Shown: in pieces, positions 1-61,090 of the stretch
Numbering within the stretch: position 1 is the first letter of the stretch
Layout of the letters: each line of letters opens with the position of its first letter
Source of the DNA: a virus
DNA: 64,000 nucleotides
Virus record (IMG/VR): IMGVR_UViG_3300029789_000001
Reading direction: 5' to 3' (one strand)
The notes under the pieces: generated by a model
Databases searched by the model: none
What the model was told of the DNA's origin: nothing
The model's input: only the letters and a program-made list of their open reading frames with translations
Made by a program: the position numbers and the translations under genes

Positions 1-1172
1 ATAGTTTCTATAACTATAGCTAAATCTTCATTACATTCTTCTGGAGCTAATAGTGGAATTTCAAAAGAGGCATTGTTATATTCGTCATATAGTTTAACTA
101 TATATCCTTTACACTTAGTATAATATGGAACATCAATAATAGTAGAAGTAAATTCTTCCACTATGTAATCCATAGAATTAGTTACTTCATAACCATCTTT
201 TTTGAAATTCTCATAAGCCATTAAAATTTCTCCTTTATGAAGAAAATTATTATCATTCCATAAAAGTTTATGAATAGCTTTATTATAGTTATTTACACGA
301 GCATTAGTATAAGCTAGAATTTTAGTATGTAATATATCCTTAGCTTCTATTTCGTGTTTAAATTCCGAAACTGCTTTTCTGCAAAAATTTTCTAATTTAG
401 ACTCTATAAAGAGACTTCCATCTTCACCTTCACAGTTGTCCCACTGTTGTATTGGAGACTCTCTAAGCGTCTGTAAAATGCCTTTAAGACCACTTTTTTC
501 AGATTGTCTGTATATTTTAGTCAATCTAAATTGATGTTTACATCTAAAAACTTTTGATTGTTCATCTTCTTTTACTGGATTTAACTGAGCATAATCATCA
601 CAAAAGATAATCATAGTACCCATTAAGCTACATTTTTCTACTAATAAATCATATAAATCACTACTTACCATAGATGCTTCATCGCAAATGACAATTCCAT
701 CATATGGTATAGACATTTTTTTATCATTAGTAGCAAAGAATCTTAATTCTCTGATATCCAGTTTAAGAATATCTACTTTAGGAGATAACGCTAACATACT
801 ATGAAGAGTAGTTGCATCATAATCATTATACTTTTTAAGTACTAAAGCTGCTTTATGAGTAGGAGCACATAATTTTACAGGGAATCCTTTAGTGTTTATC
901 CACTCTAAAAGGAAGCTAGTGCAAAGCGACTTGCCACAACCAGCAGCGCCTCCTAAATTGATAGGATTTAAAAAGTCTTTTTGTTTGAAATTATCTAATA
1001 TAATATCAATTATATCGTGCAATACTTGTAATTGCTCTTCTCCTAATGTTATCTGTTTCTCTTCTTCGATAAATCTTAACCAATTATTTCCTTTTACAAA
1101 AGGATTATCTATCATACTAGGTCTTTCTGGAGACCCATCGAAATTATCTATATAAATTAATTCATCACTCAT
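1..1172 (-). CDS. Dda-like superfamily-1 DNA helicase (RecD/Pif1/Dda family). The start codon is at 1172 and the C-terminus runs off the window start
   Basis: Manual minus-strand translation MSDELIYIDNF... contains Walker A GGAAGCGKS, motif Ia KLCAPTHKAA, motif II ICDEAS and motif III IIFCDDYAQLNPV. It is absent from the ORF track because it is incomplete. Confidence 0.75.
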   Translation of the reverse strand, partial: MSDELIYIDNFDGSPERPSMIDNPFVKGNNWLRFIEEEKQITLGEEQLQVLHDIIDIILDNFKQKDFLNPINLGGAAGCGKSLCTSFLLEWINTKGFPVKLCAPTHKAALVLKKYNDYDATTLHSMLALSPKVDILKLDIRELRFFATNDKKMSIPYDGIVICDEASMVSSDLYDLLVEKCSLMGTMIIFCDDYAQLNPVKEDEQSKVFRCKHQFRLTKIYRQSEKSGLKGILQTLRESPIQQWDNCEGEDGSLFIESKLENFCRKAVSEFKHEIEAKDILHTKILAYTNARVNNYNKAIHKLLWNDNNFLHKGEILMAYENFKKDGYEVTNSMDYIVEEFTSTIIDVPYYTKCKGYIVKLYDEYNNASFEIPLLAPEECNEDLAIVIET

Positions 1173-1581
1173 ATAAATATACTCTTTCTCCTTTAGGAGT
1201 AAGAAATCCTTCAGTAAAAGCGTTTATTTTTTCTTTATTACAATTCTCCCAAGTATTTTTATTTATAGCTTCTTTAAGAGATTTATTATAATAAATTATA
1301 TCTAAGATTGTCTCCCAATATACATCATTATTATCAGTTTGAAAAGTTAATAATAATTGATATTTCTTAAATAATTCTAAATTTATTTGAGGAACAAATT
1401 CAAAGTTAGGATTACCATATTTATCTTTCCAAGTAACGTCATAACTATGTAACTCAATCCATTTATTAGGAAGTCTACAAGGTAATCCTGATATTATGGG
1501 TCCAAAATAAATGGAAGGTTTAGGAATTCTAAACCATTTCCTAACCTTCCACCATGTTCTAAGAGGGTTCTCCATCAGCAC
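1165..1581 (-). CDS. hypothetical protein
   Basis: ORF track, 138 aa. Its start overlaps the upstream stop. No recognisable motif. Confidence 0.4.
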   Translation of the reverse strand: MLMENPLRTWWKVRKWFRIPKPSIYFGPIISGLPCRLPNKWIELHSYDVTWKDKYGNPNFEFVPQINLELFKKYQLLLTFQTDNNDVYWETILDIIYYNKSLKEAINKNTWENCNKEKINAFTEGFLTPKGERVYLYE

Positions 1582-1828
1582 GTCTTAAATAAGGTATTAA
1601 CTTTTCTTCTATTGTTCTATAAAAAGACGGACTAACATCATCATATACCAGAGTCCCATATAAAGCTTGAATAATTTCTTCTTTATTTAATTGCCACTCT
1701 TCCACATAAGATAAAGTGGACTTAATAGACATATCAGAATCAGTATGTAAGAATTTTATATAATCAAATATATCTTTAATACTTACATCTAATTCATCTG
1801 TTGTGAGATATTGATATGAAATTTTCAT
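1559..1828 (-). CDS. hypothetical protein
   Basis: ORF track, 89 aa, in an operon-like overlap chain. Confidence 0.35.
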   Translation of the reverse strand: MKISYQYLTTDELDVSIKDIFDYIKFLHTDSDMSIKSTLSYVEEWQLNKEEIIQALYGTLVYDDVSPSFYRTIEEKLIPYLRRADGEPS

Positions 1829-2073
1829 GATTCTAAAGATAATTTAGTTATATATTGTGCTATATCGTCTATAACTTCTCTTAGACCAGAATCTGAGGGG
1901 TTATTATTTTTATAACCCCGTAATTTTAAAAATCTATAAGTATAAATGCGAGCTTCTGGCATCCATTTATTAAATACTTCTACATTAGATAATGTTGGAG
2001 GGAATAAACTTCTAATCCAATCCCAATATTCAGAAGTATCTATCTTTAAAGTTCCTATGAATTTAATTTCCAT
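1825..2073 (-). CDS. hypothetical protein
   Basis: ORF track, 82 aa. ATGA overlap with the neighbours. Confidence 0.35.
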   Translation of the reverse strand: MEIKFIGTLKIDTSEYWDWIRSLFPPTLSNVEVFNKWMPEARIYTYRFLKLRGYKNNNPSDSGLREVIDDIAQYITKLSLES

Positions 2074-2546
2074 TCTTTTAATTCATTATTTTCAGTATCT
2101 AACACAAATGGTTTACAACAATCTAGCATCGCATATTTATCTGTGATTACAGGTTCAGTTCTTCCTCCCCAAGAGTGCCCAAATATTTGATAATAACCTT
2201 TATATGGAGTTTGCAGTTGAAAATCTTCTAAATCATTCCAGACACAAGAGCCATATTTATTATATCCTCCTCTAGAATAAGGGATATGATCAAGAGCACT
2301 AAGATTAGTTATATCTATACTATCTAAGTCTTTTAATTCTAGATTATTATAATCTAACCAGTCTTTAGTAATACCTGCATGGGAGAATAAGTATTTATGA
2401 GGCTCTTTAAGAGTTAAATCTTCATATATGTAATATAATTGAGGATTTAAACTACTAATTAGCTCCTTTACTTCTTTTTGTTGCCAGTAATCGAATCTGC
2501 ATTTACCATTTCCATTGGAATAATCTAACACAATTATGTCATCCAT
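2055..2546 (-). CDS. metallophosphoesterase fragment similar to the C-terminal half of lambda-type Ser/Thr phosphatase. The N-terminal catalytic motifs are missing.
   Basis: GNGKCRFDYW, KYLFSHAGI, VWND and YQIFGHSWGG line up with the lambda PPase motifs GGGWFFNLDY, KYVICHADYP, IWNRE and FIFGHTP. No GDxHG / GDxxDRG / GNHE motifs are seen upstream. Confidence 0.45.
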   Translation of the reverse strand: MDDIIVLDYSNGNGKCRFDYWQQKEVKELISSLNPQLYYIYEDLTLKEPHKYLFSHAGITKDWLDYNNLELKDLDSIDITNLSALDHIPYSRGGYNKYGSCVWNDLEDFQLQTPYKGYYQIFGHSWGGRTEPVITDKYAMLDCCKPFVLDTENNELKEWKLNS

Positions 2547-2722
2547 TATTTTTGTTTTCGAAGCGCATTACTAGTACTAAATAGTTAATGGCTTCTAGCT
2601 CATTATCAGATAAAGATATTAATTTACCATTAATATCAATATCATATCCATCTACATTAGCCCATCTTGTAAGAGTTATATAGTCGGAATCTTTACCTCC
2701 ATATGTGTATTTTTTAAGATTG

Positions 2723-3118
2723 TCAGTAATCTGACTTACTTTCGTCACTTCCATGATTTAACTTATTAAAACCATAAATAATTAATTCTTTAAAATCTTT
2801 TTCTTCTTGTTCTGTTAAATCTAAAGGTCTTTCATCTATCCACATAAACTCATAAACTCCTTCATGTTTATTATACTCAAAACTTGCTATAGCATAACAA
2901 GTTTCAGAATTTTTAAAGCAGCTTTTATGTATTTTATGCCAGGAAAAGTTTGGGTCTCTGTACCAATCATTATCTATTTTTATAAAATCAGACTCATGAC
3001 CATAATAACAATTAGGCATATATCTATTTATATGATAGGCTTTAATTTCAGGAGGATTTTTTAAAAGATAGGTAGCGACCTTAAATTCTAAATTATTTAT
3101 TCGCTTAGTCTCTATCAT
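2723..3118 (-). CDS. hypothetical protein
   Basis: ORF track, 131 aa. Confidence 0.35.
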   Translation of the reverse strand: MIETKRINNLEFKVATYLLKNPPEIKAYHINRYMPNCYYGHESDFIKIDNDWYRDPNFSWHKIHKSCFKNSETCYAIASFEYNKHEGVYEFMWIDERPLDLTEQEEKDFKELIIYGFNKLNHGSDESKSDY

Positions 3119-3293
3119 CTTCTATATTAATTTTACCTTCTTTAATCATAAATTCTATTTCATCTTCTCTGTAACCAAGAACATCACATAAATAAACTTC
3201 TACATCATTAATATCATCTGGAACTGTTACTAAGTCAACACTTCCTACACCGTAATTTAAAATTGCACACTCCATAAAACTAAAAAAGGAGGC

Positions 3294-3794
3294 TTATTCA
3301 GCCTCCTTCCAAAATATATCAGTACACCATATCATTATATGGTCATTTCTATCTATCTTATAAAAATTTTGATTAGTATGTGGATTATTTAATGGTCCGA
3401 ATTGTTTCATATAAGGACCAAGTTTAATATAATCAAAATTATCAATATCTATAACACTATCAGCTAGTAATTGTTTACCACTATACCATCCAATATGTAA
3501 TTCGGGATAATTTTCTCTAACCCATTTAGCTAATTTATTTATTTCTTTTGGATCAGAATCTCCTCCCATAAATCCTACTAATGTAATTCCTTTATTAGAT
3601 TCAATTAATTCTTGGAGTCGTTCCAATGATAGTACTTCTCCAATATCTTTTGACAAATAAGGTGAGTGGCAACCATCACAGAAACAAGGGCAACCACTGA
3701 TGTTAATACATAGAGAAACTTCATTAGGAAATTCTGCAAAAGTAACAGCTGTATCAACATATTTAAGCATAGAACTCTTTAATTTTATTCTCAA
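3294..3794 (-). CDS. nrdG: anaerobic ribonucleotide reductase activating protein (radical SAM)
   Basis: The motif ISGCPCFCDGCHSP matches the NrdG-type C-x3-C-x2-C cluster. It lies immediately downstream of nrdD and a thioredoxin gene. Confidence 0.8.
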   Translation of the reverse strand: MRIKLKSSMLKYVDTAVTFAEFPNEVSLCINISGCPCFCDGCHSPYLSKDIGEVLSLERLQELIESNKGITLVGFMGGDSDPKEINKLAKWVRENYPELHIGWYSGKQLLADSVIDIDNFDYIKLGPYMKQFGPLNNPHTNQNFYKIDRNDHIMIWCTDIFWKEAE

Positions 3795-4026
3795 GCATAT
3801 CAGCAGTTAAAACTCCAGAAGTTCTTCCTACCTCTATATTATCTTTTATAAATACAAGAGTTGGAAGATTTCTAATATTATATTTAAGAGTAGTTTCTTC
3901 CTCTGTCTCTATATCTACTGTAGTTAAAGTAATATCAGTATGATTTTCTAATACTCTTTTTAAAATAGGTGCTAAAACTTTACATTGTCCACACCACTCT
4001 GCTTCAAATTTTAATATTCTTTTCAT
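3763..4026 (-). CDS. thioredoxin-like protein
   Basis: WCGQC active-site motif, 87 aa, thioredoxin fold length. Confidence 0.75.
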   Translation of the reverse strand: MKRILKFEAEWCGQCKVLAPILKRVLENHTDITLTTVDIETEEETTLKYNIRNLPTLVFIKDNIEVGRTSGVLTADMLENKIKEFYA

Positions 4027-4514
4027 TGTGCTAATTCTATATTAATTTCTAATTCATTCTTTCTACTTCTAGTACTACCTTCTAGTTGTCTAGCAGCACT
4101 CCAGTTAGAAATCTTTGTAAGATAGCCGATAATGCGATCCCATAGACTTACATGAGTACTACCACATTTAGGACATTTACTAAACGGTTGTTTTGCTATA
4201 AAATGACACTCTTCACATTCACAATTAGGAATATTAAAAGTAGCATATTTACAACCTACTTTAGCCATAAATTTAAGTAAATACTCATATTGTTTCTGAC
4301 TCAAATGTTCAGATAAATTAAGATGACAAGCAGAACCCCCATCCAATTCATCAGCAGCGAATTCAGAACTATGAAGTATAATTTTATCAAGTATACTTAT
4401 ATGTGTATCATTAGGTTTAAATATATAACTAGCATACAGATTAGTATCTGTAGGAATCCAATAGCCATCAGCTTTATCTCTATTATAAAGTTTTACTGAA
4501 GCGCTTTCTGCCAT
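4023..4514 (-). CDS. nrdD: NrdD C-terminal segment (glycine-radical domain plus zinc ribbon). It is either exon 2 of an intron-split nrdD or a separately translated split-gene fragment.
   Basis: Motifs DGGSACHLNLSE, CECEECHF...CPKCGS and the glycine-radical motif RIIGYL. GAAGGAG sits 9 nt upstream of its ATG, which is a rare SD-like site in this window. Confidence 0.85.
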   Translation of the reverse strand: MAESASVKLYNRDKADGYWIPTDTNLYASYIFKPNDTHISILDKIILHSSEFAADELDGGSACHLNLSEHLSQKQYEYLLKFMAKVGCKYATFNIPNCECEECHFIAKQPFSKCPKCGSTHVSLWDRIIGYLTKISNWSAARQLEGSTRSRKNELEINIELAQ

Positions 4515-10562: not shown

Positions 10563-10828
10563 TATTTAAAATCAATTAATTTAAAACTATCGGCGTAATT
10601 ATTTGACATTATAGCTTTTAGTAATGCTAGCAAATTTTCATTACATTTAAAACTACAATCTATAGTAATATCATCGAAATATTCCCATGTAATATCTTCA
10701 TCGTTATAGCCAATGAATCCAACTGGTTTATTACATTTGTATGCTAAAATAATACCCGAAGTATTCTCATTTATATCAGAAATATCTATAAATTTATCGG
10801 ATATTTCTGGAAGTCTTATGTCTCTCAT
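10562..10828 (-). CDS. hypothetical protein, paralog B of a tandem pair
   Basis: 88 aa. Tandem duplicate of 10278..10562. Confidence 0.45.
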   Translation of the reverse strand: MRDIRLPEISDKFIDISDINENTSGIILAYKCNKPVGFIGYNDEDITWEYFDDITIDCSFKCNENLLALLKAIMSNNYADSFKLIDFK

Positions 10829-11142
10829 TAATTATTTCCTTTAATAGTTCCCATCAAAATATCTTTATCTTTTACAATAGTATAATTAATACTCCATTTA
10901 GTATGTCCAAAATTAGCTGTAATATAATTACTACTACCATACATACTACCTACTGATATATAATCAAACTGCTTACCAGTAGTATAAGCATAATTATGTA
11001 AATCACCTTTTACTACATAAATATGAGGACTACATATACCTTTTTCTGCTATATAATTAGCAAAGAATAATTCAGTCTGAGGATTTAAAGTAAGAGGAAA
11101 TTGTCTAGTCTGAGAATTATTATCTTTCAGTTTTGTTATCAT
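10828..11142 (-). CDS. hypothetical protein; possible downstream exon (motif V region) of the SbcD-like nuclease
   Basis: TLNPQTELFFANYIAEKGICSPHIYVVKGDLHN resembles the SbcD TLDAFPAQNF...YIALGHIH region. Weak. Confidence 0.35.
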   Translation of the reverse strand: MITKLKDNNSQTRQFPLTLNPQTELFFANYIAEKGICSPHIYVVKGDLHNYAYTTGKQFDYISVGSMYGSSNYITANFGHTKWSINYTIVKDKDILMGTIKGNN

Positions 11143-11279
11143 ACAGCTTTTTATCTGTATTTCTATAGTTTCTTATTTACTATAGCTCGGCGTACATATT
11201 CACCTCCACCTTTACGTGCTGAGGGCAAACCACTCTTGGAACTATTTTATTCTGATTTCTCAGGTTCAAGTTCTACGCT

Positions 11280-12377
11280 CTACGATGCTACAGACTCTTT
11301 AGTTTCTGTAGTTATCTCGGTATTAGCATCACAGCCTTCACCGATATTGGTTTGTTTTAACATATTTGATTTCTCAAATATACGGCAAAAATAAATAAAT
11401 TTTTCATATTTTCTATTTAAATAAATTGAGCAATTATCATATAATTTATGTAATACATACATAGCTTTTCTACTAGAAGCCTGTATATACATAGTAATTT
11501 CTTTTTTATTATTATGATTATGAAATAAAGTTTCTTCTATATTTAAATAACTCATAATAACCTTTAAAAACTCTTTAGTTCCAAGTATTTGATATACTGG
11601 AATAGTATGTTCTTTATTAGCATAGCTAATACACCCATCACCATCAAAATAACCTCTAATAAAATGTCTTATTAAGTCCCTAGATTTAAAGATACTTTCA
11701 TCAGGAAATTTTAATGTTAAACTCTTTCTAGGAGTACATCCTAAAGAATTTAGTTGTTTCCATAAGATTTCACTGGATAAACATACTCTACATCTAGTAT
11801 GTCCATATTTATCAGCTTTAGTAACATGTAATTCTTTATTGTACCCAATAGCTTTTGCAAATTTTTCCATATGTTCTTTATCATCCCCTTTAGTACATAG
11901 TTCAAAGTTCCAATCTATCCTTTCTTTGGATGTATCTAGAGGGGAACTATAAATATAACCATCAGCAAATATAAAACCTAACCAATAAGCTTTTTCTTCA
12001 GTATCTATATTGTCAAAAAAATGTTCATTGTAAGATTTTTCTTTCTTTCCCTTTTTATTAGGATTATAAAGATTTAAAGTTACTAAATGAGTTTTTAAAG
12101 TTTGTGCTCCAATATTATATTTTATAGCGGAAGCACGTAATCCTGTATCAGAATTAATATAATCTTTTATAGCTAAATTTAAATTCTTAATAGTTATACC
12201 CGTTAAATATACACTATAAGAATAGTTATTATCTTTTAATAATTGCTCTAAATAATCTCGGCTAACTTTATTAGCTTTACAAAAAGCAGTTAGCTTTAAT
12301 TCCGAATTTAAAAAATTATTTAATATTTCTATGAGAGTATTATAACTCTTCCACGGAAATATAATAATTAAAATATG
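11280..12377 (-). CDS. LAGLIDADG homing endonuclease (two-motif, ~360 aa). The open frame has no ATG at its 5' end.
   Basis: Manual translation of the frame upstream of the tracked ORF is continuous from 12377. Motifs AYWLGFIFADGYIY and IRGYFDGDGCISY. The first in-frame ATG is at 11870, in the middle of the protein. It ends at TAG, followed 10 codons later by TAA. Confidence 0.75.
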   Translation of the reverse strand, partial: HILIIIFPWKSYNTLIEILNNFLNSELKLTAFCKANKVSRDYLEQLLKDNNYSYSVYLTGITIKNLNLAIKDYINSDTGLRASAIKYNIGAQTLKTHLVTLNLYNPNKKGKKEKSYNEHFFDNIDTEEKAYWLGFIFADGYIYSSPLDTSKERIDWNFELCTKGDDKEHMEKFAKAIGYNKELHVTKADKYGHTRCRVCLSSEILWKQLNSLGCTPRKSLTLKFPDESIFKSRDLIRHFIRGYFDGDGCISYANKEHTIPVYQILGTKEFLKVIMSYLNIEETLFHNHNNKKEITMYIQASSRKAMYVLHKLYDNCSIYLNRKYEKFIYFCRIFEKSNMLKQTNIGEGCDANTEITTETKESVAS

Positions 12378-12387
12378 TTAAAATTTA

Positions 12388-13626
12388 TTACAAAACTCTA
12401 CCGTGAGCATATAGGAATTGATGATCTCCAATGATGAAATTATCAATAGGATAGTTACTAATATAACTCTTAACATTATATTTAGTTAAATATGCAGCTA
12501 AAAGTTTCTGATTTAACCATTCAAAATCACCACCATGATTAGATTCTCCTATAGAGAGATAATTAAAATCTTTACTTTTTACTTTTACTGTAAGAGTAGC
12601 AAAGAACTCCATCATACACTCTATAAATGCTTCACTAATTTCTTTATTATCAAGAATCTCAGGAAGCTCATGACCCCCTCTAGTAGTTTCTTTATTGAAC
12701 CCATCAATAGAATCTCCAAGATTAACTACATATACAGAATGATATTCTTGTTCCACAAAAGATTCCACAATTCTAGATAATCTAGATTTAATTTCTGGAA
12801 CATCATAAGAAGGTAACTGTACAAAACTACTATATTTAGCATTATAAGCTCCGATATGTAAATCAGATAACCATATAATTAAATCAGGATATTTTGCTTC
12901 TTTATTATTAATATTTACTGGAAGCTCTTTATAATCCTTTACTGTATTTTTAATAGTATCTTCTATAAGTTCCTTATTTAAAGACTTAGAGGTTTCCTTA
13001 GTTAACTTAGTAACTAAAGCTCTTAAATCCTTTACTTCATCTTTCTCTATTCTTTTTAAGAAATCATTCTCTTTTTCTCTAAGATGCATTTCTTTTAATT
13101 CATCCTCAGTATATTCTTCATACATATGAGGAGCAAATGGAGAGGATGCTTTAGTAATATTAAAAGCTCGTAAAATTCTTTTAAAGTCAATAAGAGAATA
13201 GTCTGGGAAATATCTGCTGACAATCTGCTGGGTTAAACCAGAACCGTAATAAGTATACATTCTATATACACTATTCATTTCGTTTCTAGTAAAGACTCCT
13301 GTGATTGCGGGCTTATTTCTTCTGAAAATCTCAAACTTATATCCAGTAATTTTACCAGTATCCTCGTCTCTTATTTCCCAAGTATTAGAAGCATCATCTG
13401 TATCTTTCTTTACTTCTTTTTTCTTAGTATTCTTTAGTTTATCATATAATTCCAATATCTTCTTATCATCTTCATCTTTATTTTCTTTCTTTTTAAGATT
13501 TCTCATTGTCATATATACAGTATTTATATTTTTTCCTGATATAGTACACTGAGCTTTTAAAGAACGATTATTATTAATTGCATCATTAAAGAACTTAATA
13601 TAAGAAGATTTTGTTGCTTGTTTCAT
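12388..13626 (-). CDS. calcineurin-like metallophosphoesterase of the SbcD/Mre11 nuclease family, with a 240-aa N-terminal extension. It ends right after motif IV.
   Basis: Motif I IIWLSDLHIG, motif II VVNLGDSIDG, motif III SIGESNHG, motif IV IIGDHQ. Double TAA TAA stop. Motif V is absent from this ORF. Confidence 0.65.
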   Translation of the reverse strand: MKQATKSSYIKFFNDAINNNRSLKAQCTISGKNINTVYMTMRNLKKKENKDEDDKKILELYDKLKNTKKKEVKKDTDDASNTWEIRDEDTGKITGYKFEIFRRNKPAITGVFTRNEMNSVYRMYTYYGSGLTQQIVSRYFPDYSLIDFKRILRAFNITKASSPFAPHMYEEYTEDELKEMHLREKENDFLKRIEKDEVKDLRALVTKLTKETSKSLNKELIEDTIKNTVKDYKELPVNINNKEAKYPDLIIWLSDLHIGAYNAKYSSFVQLPSYDVPEIKSRLSRIVESFVEQEYHSVYVVNLGDSIDGFNKETTRGGHELPEILDNKEISEAFIECMMEFFATLTVKVKSKDFNYLSIGESNHGGDFEWLNQKLLAAYLTKYNVKSYISNYPIDNFIIGDHQFLYAHGRVL

Positions 13627-20813: not shown

Positions 20814-21555
20814 TTAAAATATTGTCATCATTATTGGTTTCATTATGGTCATCTGCGATTTCTTCTTCTTCCTCACCATATTCAAAGTTATGGATAGTAT
20901 CTAAAACCTTCTGCATATTAGGTTCAATCAGTTTATCTTTAAAACATCCATCAACACTACGACAAGTATCGTTACCATTGGTTTTGGTTCTAAAGAAATA
21001 ACTAATATTGCCCTCATCATCAACCTGACGTTCAGTATATAAAATATAAGAAAATAAACCATCAATATTTACGGTTCTATCCAACATTTTACCACTAGAA
21101 TATAACTGCCAATGTTCATCGAGGTCAGTACCAGCATTAATGATATGACTAATGAATACTACATTAAGATCTTCACGCAGTTCACTAGCTTCCATGATTA
21201 AGTCATAATAATTTTTAGCAAACACAACGTGCTTATCCCAACCCTTTTCAAGGGCAGAATCCATTATATTATTTGAAAGACAATAGTTAGCATCATCTAC
21301 GACTACTGTCTTAATATCAGTACGTAATTTATCAATAATTTTTAACCACTTACCAATAGTAGTATAATCATTAGATACAAGCCAATTTCCAACTGGCTTC
21401 TTATTTACAACTTCAGCTTTCTTGTACTTACGTCTAAATCCAGGAATTTGAAGTTGCTTGTTAGTACAACTAATGATAAATGTTGATTTATAATCTAAAT
21501 AACGCAAAGAAGTGCTTTTTCCGGTACCACTCAAACCTGCTAAACCAATAATCAT
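20800..21555 (-). CDS. Sak4-like / RecA-paralog P-loop ATPase
   Basis: N-terminal Walker A GLAGLSGTGKST. About 250 aa, the typical size of a phage Sak4. Confidence 0.6.
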   Translation of the reverse strand: MIIGLAGLSGTGKSTSLRYLDYKSTFIISCTNKQLQIPGFRRKYKKAEVVNKKPVGNWLVSNDYTTIGKWLKIIDKLRTDIKTVVVDDANYCLSNNIMDSALEKGWDKHVVFAKNYYDLIMEASELREDLNVVFISHIINAGTDLDEHWQLYSSGKMLDRTVNIDGLFSYILYTERQVDDEGNISYFFRTKTNGNDTCRSVDGCFKDKLIEPNMQKVLDTIHNFEYGEEEEEIADDHNETNNDDNILNEAN

Positions 21556-22634
21556 AAACTATAGTCTAATTTACTTTTCACTTTTTCATCTTTATCTTCA
21601 TTCTTTATTGCATTATCTGTTGAACTGTTATTTGTAGCTCGATATCTAGAATAATCAAAGATTTCTTCTGGCTTAGGCATTTCCATCCACTTATTTACTG
21701 CTCCGTCAAAGAAACAGCAATCAGCTACTTGGTTTTCTCCATATCTTGACTTTAGTACAAGAATACTTCGAAACCTATAACCCATTTCTTTAACTTGGTA
21801 GCCTCTATAAGTTGTTCTTTTATCAACTTGAGGATTATATACAGCTAAAATAATTTCAGAATTCTCTGAAACAGTGGATGTTTCCTTAATATCCTCCACC
21901 ATTGGCTCCATGAAAGCTTCATTCTTTTTTCTTTCCATGTTAGCCACTGCTCTATTGGATTGCATAACAATAATTGGAGATAATCCTGTTTTATTTCTAA
22001 TGATAACTAATTTATTAGTGTAATCATCAATTTCTCCTTTTCTGTTCCTTCCATTGGATGGTTGGATCAATCCAACATGGTCAGTTACTGAAAGTATTAC
22101 TTTTTCAGGGTCTTTCGGAATATACTTATTCTCTGTAAATTCTCCTTCTTTTTTAAGCTCTTCCATTGTAACTTTTATGAGCCTATCAGAATTAAAAGAG
22201 CCTTCGTATATAGTTAGTACTTTATATACTTTTTCTAGCCAATCATATCCTAGTTGTACATACTCATATAAATCATCAGGTAAAATATAATCTTTACCTA
22301 TAGATAATATTTGTTTAGCAGTTACAACAATATGATAGGTATCATATAAATAGGTACTTAATAATTTAGCTATAATAAAGTCTTCTTTCATTTCAAGAGC
22401 AAAGAAAATAATTTTTAATTTATTATCTTCTAAATGCTCTTTTAAAGGAGCGTATATATAAGAATATAATACGCATGAACTTTTACCTTGCCCTGAACTC
22501 GCAAATAAGAGAGTCATGGTACTTTTAGTAATACCTCCTATTAATTCTTCCAATTTAGGAAGACCCATACTAAATCCTTGATTAAATCCTTGTCTACCAA
22601 GCTCTATCGAACGTTTAAAACTTTCTAAACTCAC
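21552..22634 (-). CDS. DnaB-family replicative helicase (RecA-like C-terminal domain)
   Basis: GLPKLEELIGG, Walker A ASSGQGKSS, Walker B ILSVTDHVGLIQ and arginine-finger-like IVMQSNRAV. Confidence 0.75.
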   Translation of the reverse strand: MSLESFKRSIELGRQGFNQGFSMGLPKLEELIGGITKSTMTLLFASSGQGKSSCVLYSYIYAPLKEHLEDNKLKIIFFALEMKEDFIIAKLLSTYLYDTYHIVVTAKQILSIGKDYILPDDLYEYVQLGYDWLEKVYKVLTIYEGSFNSDRLIKVTMEELKKEGEFTENKYIPKDPEKVILSVTDHVGLIQPSNGRNRKGEIDDYTNKLVIIRNKTGLSPIIVMQSNRAVANMERKKNEAFMEPMVEDIKETSTVSENSEIILAVYNPQVDKRTTYRGYQVKEMGYRFRSILVLKSRYGENQVADCCFFDGAVNKWMEMPKPEEIFDYSRYRATNNSSTDNAIKNEDKDEKVKSKLDYSL

Positions 22635-23320: not shown

Positions 23321-24478
23321 TCAGAATCTAAAATCAAATTTAGGAACTATCTTTTCACCTGGGGTAAAGTCTTTACCTTGTAACACTTTATCCAATTCTG
23401 ATTCGTCTATAGTTATAAAAGAATCTCCCTTATGAGAATCATAAAACCACTTGGTCTCTTGAGTCCTATTTAATACTATATTGAATATCTCTGCTGTCTT
23501 ACCTTTTTCAAAGCGGATTGATCTTCCTCTCCGTTGACAAGCTCTAGTAGTTGAACTATCTAATCCAAATATAATAGCTACAGAAAGACCTTTTACATCA
23601 AGTCCTTCATCAGCTTTTTTTACTGTAGATAATAAAGTTATCTTTCCAGAGTTAAAATCTTCAATAGCTGTAGCACTTCTTTTTTTAGAAGTTCTACTAG
23701 AATATACAGTAGCATTAGGAATTTTTTCTGCCATTTTAATATTATTAGCAAAAGTTATTATTTTTTTATCCTTTCTAGCTTCTATAATTTTCTTTACTAT
23801 TTCAATTTTCTTTGGATGATTATTTATGAAAGCTTTTTTCTCATGCATAGTAGACCAAAATCTGATAGCATGATAATTTATACTTTGTAATACTTCAGAC
23901 TTTTTATTAGGATCACTACACATAGAATCTCTTAGGAGTAGTTTATTTCGCCAACCCATAGGACCGGCTAATTTATTAACTAACTCCCAAGAGAATCCGA
24001 AGAATTCAAAATGAGAAATGAATTCTTTATTTATTTTTTCATATTCTTCTAAATCATCAACATTTACTAAGACTAGATATTCTTTATATGGACTAACCCA
24101 ACCATTTGCAAGACAAGTATTAATATCAATAGTATCAATTACTGGACAGTATTTTGCTAATATTTTATCTCTACCATCAAGACGCTCAAAAGTAGCTGTA
24201 AGACCTAAGATAAATTGGTATTTTACTACTTCAAATAATCTTACAAAAGTCTCAGCTGCATATCTATGCGCTTCATCCAGTACTAAAAGATCATATTTGG
24301 CAGGATGTTTTATTACAGTGTTTATTATTTGTACGTCACAACTTAATCCTAGCCCATTAGAATCTATATGACCATACCATTGTTTTTGTAAAGTTTCTGT
24401 TGGTACAATTATTAGTACTCGGTATTGTGGAAAGTGTTTTAACACTGTTTTAATACAGTTTAGTCCTATTCTGGATTT
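23321..24478 (-). CDS. SF2 (DEAH-type) helicase, proposed exon 2. The tracked ORF starts at GTG 24445, and the frame is open up to 24478.
   Basis: Motif Ia RVLIIVPTETL, motif II LVLDEAH, motif III GLTAT, motif VI QRRGRSIR. Walker A is missing from this ORF. Confidence 0.7.
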   Translation of the reverse strand, partial: KSRIGLNCIKTVLKHFPQYRVLIIVPTETLQKQWYGHIDSNGLGLSCDVQIINTVIKHPAKYDLLVLDEAHRYAAETFVRLFEVVKYQFILGLTATFERLDGRDKILAKYCPVIDTIDINTCLANGWVSPYKEYLVLVNVDDLEEYEKINKEFISHFEFFGFSWELVNKLAGPMGWRNKLLLRDSMCSDPNKKSEVLQSINYHAIRFWSTMHEKKAFINNHPKKIEIVKKIIEARKDKKIITFANNIKMAEKIPNATVYSSRTSKKRSATAIEDFNSGKITLLSTVKKADEGLDVKGLSVAIIFGLDSSTTRACQRRGRSIRFEKGKTAEIFNIVLNRTQETKWFYDSHKGDSFITIDESELDKVLQGKDFTPGEKIVPKFDFRF

Positions 24479-24800
24479 CGATTTTGTTATCGTATAGCTT
24501 TTTATCTATACTTCTTACTATTACTAGTAAGTCCCGCATAAATTTTTACCCACTTATTTCAGTTGGGGTATCGAACACTCGTGGAGAAATTATATTCTAA
24601 TAAAAATAGTCTAGTTAATAATTAGACTATTTATTAGGTTCATTCTCTATGCTGTACGGTGTAGAAGATTCTTTAATTTCTTCTATTACCTCGGTATTAC
24701 CCTCTATAGGGCTTTCACCGATTTTGCTCGATAATAATTTCGAAGATTCCTCTATCGAAACGGCATCGTAATTAACAGGTATATGACCCGCTTTTACAGT
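24479..24800 (-). other. putative 322-nt group I intron in the SF2 helicase gene, with no internal ORF
   Basis: Splicing GGU|...ucG| joins exon 1 ...ASTGFG to exon 2 KSRIGLNCIKTVLKHFPQYRVLIIVPT. This restores Walker A TGFGKS at the normal spacing from motif Ia. The 5' exon ends in U and the intron ends in G. Contains an AGACUA element and a 10-bp perfect hairpin. Confidence 0.5.
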
Positions 24801-24932
24801 ACCAAAGCCAGTAGACGCAACTATTGTCCCTACACAACGATTTTTTATCCATTTTCTACGACACTCTTCTTGTCGTTCATCTCTAGTGATTTTATGAAAT
24901 AGTTCTCCTTCAATCAGAGAGTTTGTAGCCAT
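24801..24932 (-). CDS. SF2 helicase, proposed exon 1. The tracked ORF 24627..24932 reads through into the intron.
   Basis: LRDERQEE (Q-motif-like) and ...IVASTGFG, ending at the first half of Walker A. Confidence 0.55.
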
Positions 24933-25896
24933 TGTAATCAGCTACTGCTTTGATTTGTTTAATACGCTTCTCCCACTCTGAAGCTTGCCATCTAACCTTA
25001 TTTTCGAGATGCAGTAAAACTTTATCTCTTAAGGTTTCCAATTGTACTTTAGTCAGATCATTATAACGCTTATCATATTTATCCTTACGGAAGGTAAGCA
25101 TTGCGCTAAACTCTTTTAGAGTTAAGCCTTTTCTATCATCAATTTTTAAAACAAGACCTTTTCTGTCTTCAGGATTCTTAGGGTCTCTCAATTTAATATT
25201 TAGAAGTTCAGCAACTTGCTTAATTCTATCTACTAAACGACCATTCTCGTCTTTCTTATTTAATTCTAATAACTCAGAACGTGTAAACCACAATCCAAGC
25301 TCAGTAATAAATGTAAGAGTAATGTGTTTACGGACACATTTACCTAAAGCAGATAAACAAGCTTCTCTAACGATATACAATGGTAATGAAGCAAACATGG
25401 TAAATGAATCTTCATCACTATTCATAATATCATTAAGAGTCCACTCTTTAAAGAGAGTCTCTGCAATAGCACTAACATTTGTCTCGCCTTCACCACTTTC
25501 TGCATTCTCTTTAGCAAACTGTTCTGCCTGAGCAGTAATCTGCTGATTGAGCATATTAAAGAAACTAGTTCTTACAATACCTTGTCTAATACTACCTTCA
25601 CCTGGGTACAATAGCCAAATTAAAAACAACTCAGCATTACAGCGAGTTCTTTGATCTTCAATCTGTTCCAACAAAACTCGTCGTCCAGGATTTTCATAGT
25701 TGTCACTATAAAGCATTGATTCACAATGTTTATATGCTTTACGTAATTCTTCTTCAGTCATATCTACCATTTTCATGGAAGACTGAATGCGTTCACCATC
25801 TACAATTTTTCTGGAACCTTTCCAGAGAAATGTTTCTACATCATTATTCTTAGCTTCAAAAGCTTGATTGAGTTTATCACCTAAAACTGTTGTCAT
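24910..25896 (-). CDS. hypothetical protein
   Basis: ORF track, 328 aa. Confidence 0.4.
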   Translation of the reverse strand: MTTVLGDKLNQAFEAKNNDVETFLWKGSRKIVDGERIQSSMKMVDMTEEELRKAYKHCESMLYSDNYENPGRRVLLEQIEDQRTRCNAELFLIWLLYPGEGSIRQGIVRTSFFNMLNQQITAQAEQFAKENAESGEGETNVSAIAETLFKEWTLNDIMNSDEDSFTMFASLPLYIVREACLSALGKCVRKHITLTFITELGLWFTRSELLELNKKDENGRLVDRIKQVAELLNIKLRDPKNPEDRKGLVLKIDDRKGLTLKEFSAMLTFRKDKYDKRYNDLTKVQLETLRDKVLLHLENKVRWQASEWEKRIKQIKAVADYNGYKLSD

Positions 25897-42173: not shown

Positions 42174-43727
42174 TTATACATTTACGTTGGTGTTTTCTAC
42201 GTCGCCATTAACGTTAACATTCTTGTTAACCTTAGCATCAATGGTGTTAGCCTTCATAATGTCTGCCATATCTACACCTGTGGCATCTTTTACAATGTCA
42301 CGAGTCTGCTTAATAATAGCAGGCACATTACCAGAAATACCAGAAGCCTCAGAACCATTAGTTCCATAAACTGTCATATTGCCAATCTTACTCATAGGCT
42401 CAGCAATATACTTAGCCATATCAGGAAGAACTTTCTCATTAAGTTTAGAAAGCATGTCAATTACAGCAATAGAGCCATACTTACTGTATGCTTCAGCCTT
42501 CTTCTGCATAGCCTCAGCTTCTGCAAGACCCTTAGCCTTCACACCTTCAGCTTCTGCCAAAAGTTTAGCTTTAGTACCTTCAGCTTCCGCAGTTAAGGTC
42601 TGCTGAGTAGCATATGCTTCAGCTTCGCCCTTAGCACGAATACCTGCTGCCTCCTGCTCCTGAGAATAACGATTAGCTTCAGCCTTAGCTTTTACAGCCT
42701 TAGCAGTTTGCTCTGCCTTATAAGCTTCAGCCTCAGCCTCACGCTTCTGCTTCTCCAAAGCAGCCTGAGCATCAATTTCTGTCTGATACTTGTCAGCATC
42801 AGCCTTAGCATTTACATCTGCAAGATACTCATTCTGCTTAATCTTAATCTTCTCCTCAGATAAGGTCTGTTCTTTACGAGTCTTCTCAATATCAGCATCT
42901 ACAGTCTTGATATTAATAGTTTTCTGCTGCTCCTGCTGCTGAATTTCATATGCAGCATCAGATTCAGCCTTCTTAATATCAGACAATCTCTTCAGTTCAG
43001 CTCTCTTAATAGCTAATTCATTATTACGTTCAGCAATAATAGTATCAGCCTTTACTCGTGCTTCATTAGCTTCATTGTCAGCCTCAGCCTGAGCCTTAGC
43101 TACGTCTCTATCAGCATTAGCACGAGTAATCTTAGCATTCTTCTGAATAGCTGCTGTATTATCAGCTCCCAAATCACGGATCAAGCCTTTCTCATCAGTA
43201 ATATTTTGAATATTGCAAGACAAAATCTCAAGACCTAACTTAGCCATATCAGGAGCTGCCTTCTTCTGAATTTCATCAGAGAATGCATCTCTATCAGTGT
43301 TAATCTTAATTAAGTCAAGAGAACCTACTACTTCACGCATATTACCCTCCAAAGAATCTTTCACCTGAGCAGCAATCTGCACAGAATTCATATTCAAGAA
43401 GTTCTTAGCTGCAAGTCTAGTGCCTTCTGTATCAGGTTTTACCCTAACTTTACATACGGCATCTACCATTACATCCAAGAAATCATGAGTAGGAACTGGT
43501 TGTGAAGTCTTAACATCAACTGTTACTTGACCAAGATATACTTTATCTAATCGTTCAAGTACAGGAATTTTTACTCCACCACCACCGATAAGTACTCGTG
43601 GCTCCTTACGAAAACCTGAAAGAATGTACGCCATCGAAGGAGGAGCTTTAACATACATTGTAGCAATAATAACAAGCAGTACAATAATAACGACTGCGAT
43701 AACACCAATAAGAACTAAATGTTCCAT
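42174..43727 (-). CDS. flotillin / SPFH (band-7) family membrane protein
   Basis: N-terminal TM helix, SPFH core, then a long Ala/Glu/Lys-rich coiled-coil (EAEAYKAEQTAKAVKAKAEA...). GC-rich at about 42%. Confidence 0.75.
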   Translation of the reverse strand: MEHLVLIGVIAVVIIVLLVIIATMYVKAPPSMAYILSGFRKEPRVLIGGGGVKIPVLERLDKVYLGQVTVDVKTSQPVPTHDFLDVMVDAVCKVRVKPDTEGTRLAAKNFLNMNSVQIAAQVKDSLEGNMREVVGSLDLIKINTDRDAFSDEIQKKAAPDMAKLGLEILSCNIQNITDEKGLIRDLGADNTAAIQKNAKITRANADRDVAKAQAEADNEANEARVKADTIIAERNNELAIKRAELKRLSDIKKAESDAAYEIQQQEQQKTINIKTVDADIEKTRKEQTLSEEKIKIKQNEYLADVNAKADADKYQTEIDAQAALEKQKREAEAEAYKAEQTAKAVKAKAEANRYSQEQEAAGIRAKGEAEAYATQQTLTAEAEGTKAKLLAEAEGVKAKGLAEAEAMQKKAEAYSKYGSIAVIDMLSKLNEKVLPDMAKYIAEPMSKIGNMTVYGTNGSEASGISGNVPAIIKQTRDIVKDATGVDMADIMKANTIDAKVNKNVNVNGDVENTNVNV

Positions 43728-60625: not shown

Positions 60626-61090
60626 TCATAACTTATAATTATTTTGTTGGTATTCTGCTACTAATAACTTAGCATTATCTGCAAGTGCTATAATGTTAGA
60701 TTTTAACAATCTTTTATAAGCACATAAGACAATGTCATAGCATGTCTGTGTAGAATCATATGGTTCTTCTTTACGATCTTCCCATTGTGCAATGGTTAAA
60801 GTATTAAGACCATAGATTCCTCCAATATAAACCTCATTTATTGTCATAAGGTTTATATCTTTAGTTCTAAACATTCCATATTTATCTGGACCAAGATTAG
60901 CATTACGAAACCCTTTACGCCAAATTCTTTTATGGAATATCATACACTCAGATAGAGTATTGGCATTACCAATTTTAGTAAGCCAACACTCATAACTATT
61001 AACAAGACCTTGTTGAAGTTTATAATCTGTAACATTCTTGTTTAATTCCCTTTTATGGAAAATTTTATTCCAAATGTTGTATTTCTTCAT
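60626..61090 (-). CDS. hypothetical protein
   Basis: ORF track, 154 aa. Confidence 0.35.
   Translation of the reverse strand: MKKYNIWNKIFHKRELNKNVTDYKLQQGLVNSYECWLTKIGNANTLSECMIFHKRIWRKGFRNANLGPDKYGMFRTKDINLMTINEVYIGGIYGLNTLTIAQWEDRKEEPYDSTQTCYDIVLCAYKRLLKSNIIALADNAKLLVAEYQQNNYKL

Follow-up and report, generated by a model that had tools for sequence, protein, structure and literature searches.

The question raised by this locus is whether an SF2 helicase gene that is interrupted in the middle of its Walker A motif is broken, or whether the interruption is removed from its mRNA. The window, by which we mean the whole 64,000-nt stretch of viral DNA that was analysed, carries the helicase locus on its minus strand as an upstream open reading frame of 101 aa (24932..24627) and a downstream one of 374 aa (24445..23321), and a re-reading of ORFs, frames and splice-site bases found the preliminary description of that strand correct. 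The upstream frame reads ...CVGTIVASTGFG up to the ggt at 24803..24801, then enters the insert for 57 codons and ends at a TAG. As had been claimed, the downstream product, which has Pfam matches to Helicase_C and to ResIII (C-terminal half), lacks motif I, and its frame is open 5' of the GTG at 24445 (...ITKSKSRIGLNCIKTVL). Joining 24801 to 24478 takes out 322 nt and gives ...ASTGFG-KSRIGLNCIKTVLKHFPQYRVLIIVPT, in a conceptual splice product that is a 429-aa SF2 helicase. Its exon 1 (24801..24932) comprises 44 codons, MATNS...IVASTGFG, with GGU at the 3' end and an N-terminus identical to that of intact 429-aa homologues, and its exon 2 (23321..24478) comprises 385 codons plus stop, KSRIGLNCIKTV...FDFRF, holding motifs Ia-VI and completing Walker A (GFG|KS). 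At the DNA level, exon 1 (...CTTTGGT) is followed in the conceptual splice by AAATCCAG, so that the junction reads ...ACTGGCTTTGGT|AAATCCAGAATAGG, or ...GGU|AAAUCC... in RNA.

Several observations place this junction exactly where the preliminary description had put it. First, the joined protein matches the N-terminal part of ResIII/DEAD in full (E 3e-19, vs 2e-11 for the fragment) and is 96-99% identical over 100% of its length to intact 429-aa proteins of sibling gut phages (P0001-P0018), which are contiguous across the junction (...ASTGFGKSRIGLN...). Second, an intron-less allele of the same gene (L011) differs from the window at the junction by a net 322 nt, the very size that had been given for the insert, and by this allele the 3' boundary at the terminal G (omega-G, 24479) is independently fixed. 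Translation of the interrupted gene by recoding of the TAG was considered and rejected: a TAA follows 4 codons past it and the exon 1 and exon 2 frames differ; no CUA suppressor tRNA was found. The insert itself contains stop codons and does not share the frame of exon 2. We put the probability that 24800..24479 is a group I intron in the helicase mRNA, with the Gly codon of Walker A on its 5' side and the Lys codon on its 3' side, at roughly 0.93. An intron of this kind is nothing unusual in phages, and our general understanding of group I introns is left unchanged by it.

The allelic variation at the site carries much of this reading. Always after GGT and before AAATCC, one site occurs in three states, namely empty, short and endonuclease-bearing, and the U/omega-G rule is satisfied at the boundaries of all alleles. 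In L011, the only empty allele examined, the target site reads GGATTTGGTAAGAGC (idealised, GGCTTTGGTAAATCC), and synonymous changes are concentrated there. Short alleles of 321-322 nt are present in the window and in L132-L134 and L139, and this form has been found in several independent gut metagenomes. Two contigs, L001 and L135, carry at the same site a 1212-nt intron with a 319-aa LAGLIDADG ORF (Pfam PF14528, E 5e-8). The 319-aa protein is that of MT835492.1, the sister record of 121,623 bp (the window phage is ~120 kb), and the phage with the 1212-nt version is 98% identical to the window phage. Similarity to the sister phage L001 stops precisely at 24801|24800. The locus is a population snapshot in which the empty site, the intron with its endonuclease and the intron without it are found in close gut phages.

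The RNA of the insert can be folded, element by element, into a group I core. P1 joins the last 4 nt of exon 1 (UGGU, 24804..24801) to the internal guide GCCG (24764..24761) within its 3' strand (24761..24771), and the first base of the intron, A 24800, opens the stretch of intron nt 1-7 (24800..24794) that prolongs the helix (acuguaa/uuacgau) to 11 positions with one mismatch; a small hairpin (GGGU/ACCU, 24789..24777) forms within its loop. The splice rule of which the preliminary description spoke applies here as it had said, since the last exon base, U 24801, pairs as a U·G wobble with the guide and the insert ends in G 24479. The exon portion of P1 is 4 bp long with 2 wobbles, and P10 is essentially absent. 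Among the four related introns to which the guide comparison was confined, a GCCG or GCCA guide lies 5' of P2 and the partner of position -4 changes along with the exon (U·G, U-A, C-G). P2 (24738..24760; UUUCGA-u-AGA GGAA UCU UCGAAA, with a GNRA tetraloop) belongs to the minimum-free-energy fold, as does the P4-P5-P6 domain (24662..24721), which consists of P4 (UCGGUG/UACCGA, 24721..24716 with 24696..24691; 100% paired), the P5 hairpin (24712..24699) and the P6 hairpin (UAGAAGA/UCUUCUA, 24685..24662; 95.7% paired, 7/7 pairs covarying). The 5' strand of P3 (24726..24731, UCGAGC) pairs with GUUCGA (24576..24571) and thereby crosses P7 to form a pseudoknot; this helix (67-72/237-242 in the alignment) is paired in 99.3% of cells, and all 6 of its 6 pairs covary. 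A conserved J6/7 segment (24661..24653, CACCGUACA) precedes P7, in which GCAUA (24648..24652) pairs with UAUGC (24540..24536) in 100% of cells, the middle pair being A-U in 49 sequences and G-C in 27 with zero exceptions. An alternative P7 candidate, UCC(a)CG/CGGGA, fails in homologues and was dropped, whereas GCAUA/UAUGC covaries perfectly.

Further 3', P7.1 (24584..24647) is formed by GAGAA (24647..24643) with UUCUC (24588..24584) and is 99.7% paired, 4 of its 5 pairs covarying with 4-6 pair types each. It encloses an optional hairpin, P7.1a (24637..24597), which is missing in many relatives and whose 3' arm contains the AGACUA of the preliminary description; this string is peripheral, does not hold up as a P7 in homologues and is not the core element. 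Directly after P7.1 come a conserved CACGAGU (24583..24577) and, further on, the P8 hairpin (24547..24570, UACCC(c)A...UGGGUA; 88-97% paired, all pairs covarying) and a 3' module (24479..24531) made up of P9 (24531..24514, GUAA tetraloop), P9.1 (24511..24492) and a tail, GAUAACAAAAUCG, that runs to omega-G. The RNA is AT-rich (30% GC), with a minimum free energy of -96.3 kcal/mol and a z-score of -7.1 against shuffles. Michel and Westhof, in 1990, reportedly assigned extra helices between P7 and P3' (P7.1 with P7.2 or P7.1a) to subgroup IA; of these features the window family has a strongly covarying P7.1, an optional P7.1a and no P7.2.

Covariation across the family allows this fold to be weighed against the proposal that the insert is no intron at all, being instead some other insertion, for instance a miniature transposon or the scar of a recombination event, and sharing with group I introns only a hairpin module. 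In the 3' domain of 76 homologues, 94.1% of cells pair and the covariation is 0.581, compared with 0.155 after shuffling (0/500 shuffles reach 0.581) and 0.07-0.17 in slid-partner controls; an independent run of RNAalifold recovered P7, P7.1, P8, P9 and P9.1. For full cores (n=23), 94.4% of cells are paired and the covariation is 0.705 vs 0.199 shuffled. Compensatory changes are seen in 42 of 54 pairs. The family was collected with one sequence pattern and two regular expressions, which fix some invariant columns, not the covarying ones. P2 was judged from the alleles and the minimum-free-energy fold instead: MAFFT had placed the P2 and P5 of the window one column off (and, in alignment A2, the inner P9.1 pairs as well), and it is because of this register error that P2 is only 73% paired in the full-core alignment. 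Taken together, these comparisons weigh heavily in favor of the predicted P3, P4, P6, P7, P7.1, P8, P9 and P9.1 and of the P3/P7 pseudoknot. A mere insertion would be compatible with the finding that BLAST similarity to other phages lies mainly over the 3' 126 nt, and with a negative result from the Rfam group I model. It is nevertheless extremely improbable, given that P3 to P9.1 and the pseudoknot covary across the family, that neither boundary shows terminal inverted or direct repeats (by eye in the sequence), that the U/omega-G rule holds in all alleles and that in relatives homing endonucleases, LAGLIDADG or other, lie inside split genes. With the alleles at the site and a covarying fold shared with 23-76 homologous phage introns, the group I assignment first made in the preliminary description stands.

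The standard group I covariance model, by which that description had proposed to check the assignment, finds nothing here: Rfam RF00028 gave no match at E<=10 on 24300..24950, no group I match at the gathering score over the whole window and no match on 10 related loci, yet the same model detects the Twort introns with 64-101 bits. Given this positive control, the limit lies in the Rfam model and not in the search tool. The family is an outlier to that model, and what the miss weakens is the idea that the intron is a typical IA2 member; its assignment to group I is not affected. A model built from the family itself (R1) scores the window intron, which is in its seed, at 128 bits and matches four self-splicing Twort introns (E 7e-8 to 5e-5) via the 3' module; the two R1-Twort alignments inspected both skip the model's P7.1 region, and one of them skips P8 too. 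A third R1 match, at 60831..60922, was taken as noise (12.5 bits, E 0.27). Possibly the window family is a structural subclass in its own right, one that escapes standard group I models. It occurs on at least 120 viral contigs, and intron counts derived from the Rfam model are therefore too low.

From the established group I pathway we infer how splicing at the helicase locus would proceed. The guide GCCG would pair with the exon end UGGU, placing a U·G wobble at the splice site, and P7 would bind a free guanosine that attacks after U24801; the terminal G24479 would next occupy P7, and the freed exon 1 would attack after G24479, so that the exons would be ligated and the 429-aa helicase restored. 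Ribosomes could disturb folding of the intron, into which the exon 1 frame continues. The RNA might conceivably depend on a protein helper, for example a host RNA chaperone or a LAGLIDADG maturase provided in trans from the second intron of the window. LAGLIDADG proteins can be maturases, as is also generally known, a paralogous endonuclease (44% identical) is encoded in the intron at 12399..11128, and a short P1 and P7 in an RNA of such low GC content are consistent with a need for help. However, no canonical start codon precedes the first LAGLIDADG motif of this paralogue, the predicted fold is far more stable than shuffles, and phage group I introns that have been studied, including those of Twort, are reported to self-splice in vitro. 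We thus consider dependence on a helper rather unlikely.

The insert had been described as ORF-less, which holds insofar as it has no gene of its own; it does, however, retain the last ~34 codons of a LAGLIDADG homing-endonuclease gene. These codons have been kept because they overlap the ribozyme core, from P2 (3' strand) across P6 as far as J6/7 and the 5' strands of both P7 and P7.1. The window intron is a non-autonomous derivative that has lost its endonuclease gene and, therefore, cannot home by itself. This loss brings up a further reading, in which the element is a group I intron by descent that no longer splices, leaving the helicase as a pseudogene or as two polypeptides (101 aa, and 374 aa from GTG 24445). 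In keeping with such decay, the 5' 36 nt of the window intron are wholly unlike those of the endonuclease-bearing allele, so that P1 has had to be rebuilt, and a related contig (L143) contains a decaying endonuclease gene and possibly a frameshifted exon 2; the failure of the Rfam model could be counted on the same side. A scan for independent expression of exon 2 detected 5 sigma-70-type promoter-like sites where 2.9 +/- 1.6 were expected, and no terminator; it speaks neither for nor against such expression, and promoters of this type may not fit the host.

The rebuilt P1, however, is again a long helix with a single mismatch and has kept its U·G, every column that is invariant across 76 aligned family members is present in the window and all core helices are intact. 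Among the short alleles, the P2 pair at intron positions 43:61 is U-A, U·G or C-G, a compensatory series that points to selection on the RNA within the population (L001 has an alternative P2 stem, UUCUGUUCA/UGGGCAGAA). In genomes that carry the intron, purifying selection on the exons is strong: dN/dS of exon 2 against other alleles is 0.06-0.12, and it is 0.09 (dS 0.85) between two intron-bearing alleles. From what is established for P-loop ATPases, a Walker A divided into GFG and KS on separate polypeptides could not bind ATP. In view of these findings and of the recurrence of the short allele in independent metagenomes, we hold a dead relic to be very unlikely and keep to an intron that would still be spliced.

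Comparison with known systems places the window intron among phage relatives. The Staphylococcus phage Twort has self-splicing group I introns, three of them in orf142 and others in nrdE, that are usually classed IA2. They resemble the window family in residing in protein-coding genes, several related introns per genome, and in a common 3' module (P7 3' strand, xGAAC, P9 with a GNRA loop, GAAG, P9.1, (G)UAACAnAAUnG, omega-G). They differ from it in P7, which is GACUA/UAGUC in Twort and GC(A/G)UA/UA(U/C)GC in the window family, and it is the latter that has a single P7.1 enclosing an optional P7.1a, no P7.2 and no Rfam match. BLAST with the 3' module reaches Staphylococcus, Streptococcus, Bacillus, Lak and crAss-like phages, and introns of the same family lie in the terminase large subunit gene of Sextaecvirus (S-CoN_Ph1, PT1-1), the tape-measure gene of Streptococcus phage Javan355, DnaB of Bacillus phage KLEB27-3 and a helicase of crAss-like cr118_1, as well as in Lak-A1. 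These deposited relatives show 66-84% nucleotide identity to the window over the 3' core, with the same helices in the alignments, and sit in split genes, often adjoining a homing endonuclease. They differ from the window intron in their other host genes and hosts, and are annotated as two gene fragments, not as introns. Gene callers do the same to the window helicase, which appears as a 101-aa orphan and a 374-aa protein without motif I, and protein databases hold many such helicase fragments (P0026-P0038).

That introns of this kind are rare in helicase genes, as the preliminary description had remarked, matters little: in gut phages, group I introns that bear endonucleases of the LAGLIDADG or other types are reported in large numbers from core genes of replication and packaging (PMC7886860, PMC12880540). 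Those of crAss-like Delta and Zeta phages and of Jug jumbo phages resemble the window intron in coming from the human gut and probably from phages of Bacteroidota, and in Jug phages 37 of 76 predicted introns were confirmed as spliced by metatranscriptome reads (PMC7886860, PMC12880540). The hosts in these surveys were genes for major capsid protein, PolB, primase, ATPase, terminase large subunit and nrdD, whereas the window host is an SF2 helicase. A further likeness is to Bacillus cereus-group prophages, whose tape-measure genes harbor the related introns IVS1 and IVS2, 80% identical and with adapted guides (PMC2504315). The window lineage likewise has paralogous introns at several sites (helicase, DnaB-like and metallophosphatase-like), with cores ~77% identical, endonucleases 44-51% identical and GGU|AAA junctions throughout; unlike IVS1/IVS2, which share one gene, its sites lie in three unrelated genes.

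The position of the insert also recalls the inteins that lodge in the P-loop of helicases, DnaB and terminases. In both cases an essential gene is invaded at its most conserved ATPase motif, and the endonuclease class (LAGLIDADG) is the same. Inteins, however, are excised from the protein and have to keep the reading frame, whereas the window insert is out of frame and would fold as a ribozyme. It may be, and we offer this tentatively, that the intron/LAGLIDADG lineage specialises on the Gly|Lys junction of Walker A (GGU|AAA(U/A)C). If so, it could jump among unrelated P-loop ATPase genes (SF2 helicase, DnaB, terminase large subunit), within and between phages. Several of the deposited-phage relatives also interrupt a Walker A motif at G|K(S/T). 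The introns and endonucleases of the helicase and DnaB-like sites are paralogues, and a hand comparison of the helicase target site with the DnaB-like one (GGTATTGGTAAATCA) found 14 of 17 nt identical. Among 95 family members sampled, exon 2 begins with K[ST] in about 11-14.

The helicase gene lies on the minus strand as two open reading frames. The first (24932..24627) encodes 101 aa; it reads MATNS...CVGTIVASTGFG as far as the ggt at 24803..24801 and runs on from there for 57 codons to a TAG. The second (24445..23321) encodes 374 aa with Helicase_C but, of the ResIII/DEAD domain, no more than the C-terminal half, and its frame stays open 5' of the GTG, reading ...KSKSRIGLNCIKTVL. When the 322 nt of 24800..24479 are taken out, GFG is fused to KSRIGLN and the joined product of 429 aa gains the full N-terminal ResIII/DEAD match in a domain search. 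The base preceding the insert is U and its final base is G. The preliminary description, which had proposed a gene split inside Walker A by a small group I intron, was thus accurate as to the split gene, the insert and the splice-site bases, and it is right on the essentials, since junction, covarying fold and allele polymorphism at the site agree. A search with the joined protein retrieved intact 429-aa proteins (P0001-P0018) at 96-99% identity and 100% query coverage, all fetched examples of which read IVASTGFGK(S/T)R(I/V)GLNCIKTVLKHF without interruption; TGFGKTR is also present in more distant homologues (55-67% identity). Many 374-aa proteins from the same search (P0026-P0038) are the exon 2 products of other alleles that carry an intron.

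One allele without the intron, L011, can be aligned at the DNA level with the window on both flanks, and it lacks a net 322 nt exactly at the junction, where it reads ACTGGATTTGGT/AAGAGCAGAATAGG against ACTGGCTTTGGT/AAATCCAGAATAGG in the window. The five differences beside the junction are all synonymous, a pattern that would be expected of co-conversion or of selection for an endonuclease-resistant empty site. In the sister phage MT835492.1, which comes from human faeces and is 98% identical to the window, homology stops exactly between 24801 and 24800 and resumes at 24739, with 951 nt in place of 61 nt between these points. Its insert of 1212 nt contains a gene for a protein of 319 aa that has two LAGLIDADG motifs (Pfam PF14528, E 5e-8); the tail of the 101-aa ORF of the window corresponds to the C-terminal ~34 residues of this protein (SSKIGESPIEGNTEVIEEIKESSTPYSIENEPN-). 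Among contigs from other gut metagenomes, the insert is 321-322 nt long in L132-L134 and L139 and 1212 nt long in L135, in every case between ...TTTGGT and AAATCC.... Closely related phages therefore show three states of the site: empty, with an intron that encodes a homing endonuclease, and with one that lacks this gene. The window intron is best read as a deletion derivative, in which the end of the endonuclease ORF is retained because that stretch overlaps the ribozyme core (from the P2 3' strand as far as P6 and J6/7, with the 5' strands of P7 and P7.1). Two relatives at 79-87% identity, L143 and L144, have an intron of the same family directly upstream of the helicase ORF (119-122 bits with R1, the covariance model built here), and the exon 1 end of L143 (GTGFG) confirms the same insertion site. 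At the L143 locus (1537..4032, 79% aa identity) the LAGLIDADG gene is split between ORFs of 114 and 157 aa and the first ~124 nt of exon 2 seem frameshifted, reflecting either decay or an assembly error.

From homologue alignments, the window intron was assigned the helices P1 (exon UGGU and intron acuguaa with uuacgauGCCG), P2 (a hairpin with a GGAA loop), P3 (UCGAGC/GUUCGA), P4 (UCGGUG/UACCGA), P5 (GCCCU/AGGGU), P6 (UAGAAGA/UCUUCUA), P7 (GCAUA/UAUGC), P7.1 (GAGAA/UUCUC), P8 (UACCC(c)A/UGGGUA), P9 (a hairpin with a GUAA loop) and P9.1, a hairpin followed by the tail GAUAACAAAAUCG. The AGACUA that had been listed among features fitting a group I intron is contained in P7.1a, an optional long hairpin enclosed by P7.1; like our own first manual P7 proposals, it failed on comparison with homologues. 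Across 76 distinct 3' domains, standard pairs occupy 94.1% of cells and the covariation score is 0.581 against 0.155 after shuffling; none of 500 shuffles reaches this value, and shifting partners by 1-3 columns lowers it to 0.07-0.17. RNAalifold independently gave the same P7, P7.1, P8, P9 and P9.1, and the one pair of P7 that varies is A-U in 49 members, G-C in 27 and mismatched in none. In 23 full-length cores, 94.4% of cells are paired (score 0.705 versus 0.199), with P4 at 100%, P6 at 95.7% (7/7 pairs covarying) and P3, which crosses P7, at 99.3% (6/6 covarying). The family was gathered with one pattern and two regular expressions, which accounts for some invariant columns, not for the compensatory changes. 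The P3/P7 pseudoknot is a group I intron hallmark, and the proposal that the insert is something other than an intron is contradicted by the covariation of this pseudoknotted core. The fold of the single sequence is much more stable than that of shuffled controls (-96.3 versus -60.6 kcal/mol, z = -7.1) and recovers P2, P3, P4-P6, P7.1/P7.1a, P8 and P9; its other long-range pairings, including those of the 5' and 3' ends, disagree with the covariation model.

There is evidence that the short intron is probably still under selection; among 322-nt alleles, P2 positions 43:61 are U-A (window), U·G (L139) or C-G (L133, L134). Purifying selection on the helicase exons is strong, with dN/dS between the window and three alleles of 0.06 (intron-less L011), 0.09 (L144, another intron-bearing allele, dS 0.85) and 0.12 (L143). 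That the insert is a dead relic, or that the helicase is made in two pieces, is unlikely, since the ribozyme core is intact, compensatory changes are seen and the exons are under selection; moreover, a Walker A loop severed between GFG and KS cannot function as two chains. Beyond the observed junction, fold, polymorphism and selection, catalysis and splicing of the window intron are predicted from established group I chemistry. GCCG (24764..24761) would base-pair with the exon end UGGU, and an exogenous guanosine bound in P7 would cut after U24801; G24479 would then take its place in P7, and exon 1 would attack after G24479 to yield a ligated mRNA coding for the 429-aa helicase. A less likely alternative is that splicing needs a protein helper.

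A covariance search with the group I model, the check proposed in the preliminary description, gave no match: Rfam 15 finds none at the window helicase locus even at E<=10, nor at ten related loci. Since Rfam does find three Twort orf142 introns (64-101 bits) as a positive control, the family lies outside what RF00028 models. R1, built from 76 family sequences, gives 128 and 119 bits to the two copies in the window, as its construction dictates, and matches four Twort introns (orf142 region and nrdE, E 7e-8 to 5e-5), mainly across the P7 3' strand, P9, P9.1 and the tail in the two alignments printed. The window element thus has its 3' module in common with experimentally established phage introns, but differs in P7 sequence and in having P7.1/P7.1a where Twort has P7.1/P7.2; its classification stops at "IA-like". 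Phage group I introns occupy conserved protein-coding genes, with endonucleases aimed at codons of critical residues (PMC3984707), and several sites are held by related introns with adapted guide sequences (PMC2504315). Many occur in gut crAss-like and Jug phages, in the latter with splicing confirmed by metatranscriptomes for 37 of 76 predicted (PMC7886860, PMC12880540). By this literature the kind of element is ordinary and will not surprise a specialist; the helicase intron belongs to a known class and had not been annotated before, and its value lies in annotation and in how neatly it illustrates the intron/endonuclease life cycle in nature.

In deposited phages, BLAST with the locus found matches to the insert's 3' 126 nt, at 66-84% identity, inside split genes: in the terminase large subunit gene of Sextaecvirus phages of Staphylococcus and the tape-measure gene of Streptococcus phage Javan355, both adjoined by a homing endonuclease; in Bacillus phage KLEB27-3, upstream of a truncated DnaB; and in crAss-like phage cr118_1, between two 'DNA helicase' fragments. 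Lak-A1 and a Clostridioides phage also matched. A strict 3'-end pattern, GATAAAAAGN{6,7}GATAACA, is found in at least 120 viral contigs. The records of cr118_1 (MT774379.1, ~43230..43585), two Sextaecvirus phages and KLEB27-3 hold no intron feature and enter the split genes as two separate CDS (labelled 'DNA helicase' twice, 'terminase large subunit' twice, and a truncated 'replicative DNA helicase'). In a survey that included L002, L003, L004, L007, L010, L036, L051, L052, L065, L080 and L105 among other loci, exon 2 begins with AAA in 23 of 95 family members and with Lys-Ser/Thr in 11 of 95 by count (up to ~14 by eye), in genes including terminase large subunit, DnaB and helicase. On these raw counts, Walker A Gly/Lys junctions seem to be a site that the family targets repeatedly.

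The window holds a second family intron of 1272 nt (11128..12399, minus strand; exons 13626..12400 and 11127..10828), which splits a 508-aa protein at GGU/AAA, as in the helicase. This protein has metallophosphatase-like motifs (DLHIG, GDSIDG, ESNHGG, YAHG/KD), and Pfam gave zero matches for its two exon-encoded fragments, each searched separately. The intron contains a LAGLIDADG ORF (PF14528) that shares 44% identity with the endonuclease in the helicase intron of MT835492.1; its frame is open for ~365 codons and lacks a canonical start upstream of the first LAGLIDADG motif. The window has an uninterrupted DnaB-like helicase gene (21552..22634, minus strand); its MT835492.1 counterpart is split at Walker A (GIG/KS) by a third related intron (compared with L004 ~321..700), which keeps only a remnant of an endonuclease gene. 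A version of the DnaB-like-site intron in L144 (2361..3606) has a 363-aa LAGLIDADG ORF 51% identical to the helicase-intron endonuclease, and 14 of 17 nt are the same in the helicase and DnaB target sites when compared by hand. A weak R1 match at 60831..60922, minus strand (12.5 bits, E 0.27), was taken as noise.

Among the 12 tRNAs of the window there is no TAG or TGA suppressor. ARAGORN reports an 85-nt tRNA at 56442..56526, minus strand, which it labels 'tRNA-Stop' and whose anticodon UUA would read UAA; it scores 53 bits with the Rfam tRNA model, has an imperfect anticodon stem and carries a pyrimidine at position 37. Candidate explanations are an ochre suppressor, a tRNA with a mis-called anticodon and an interrupted tRNA.
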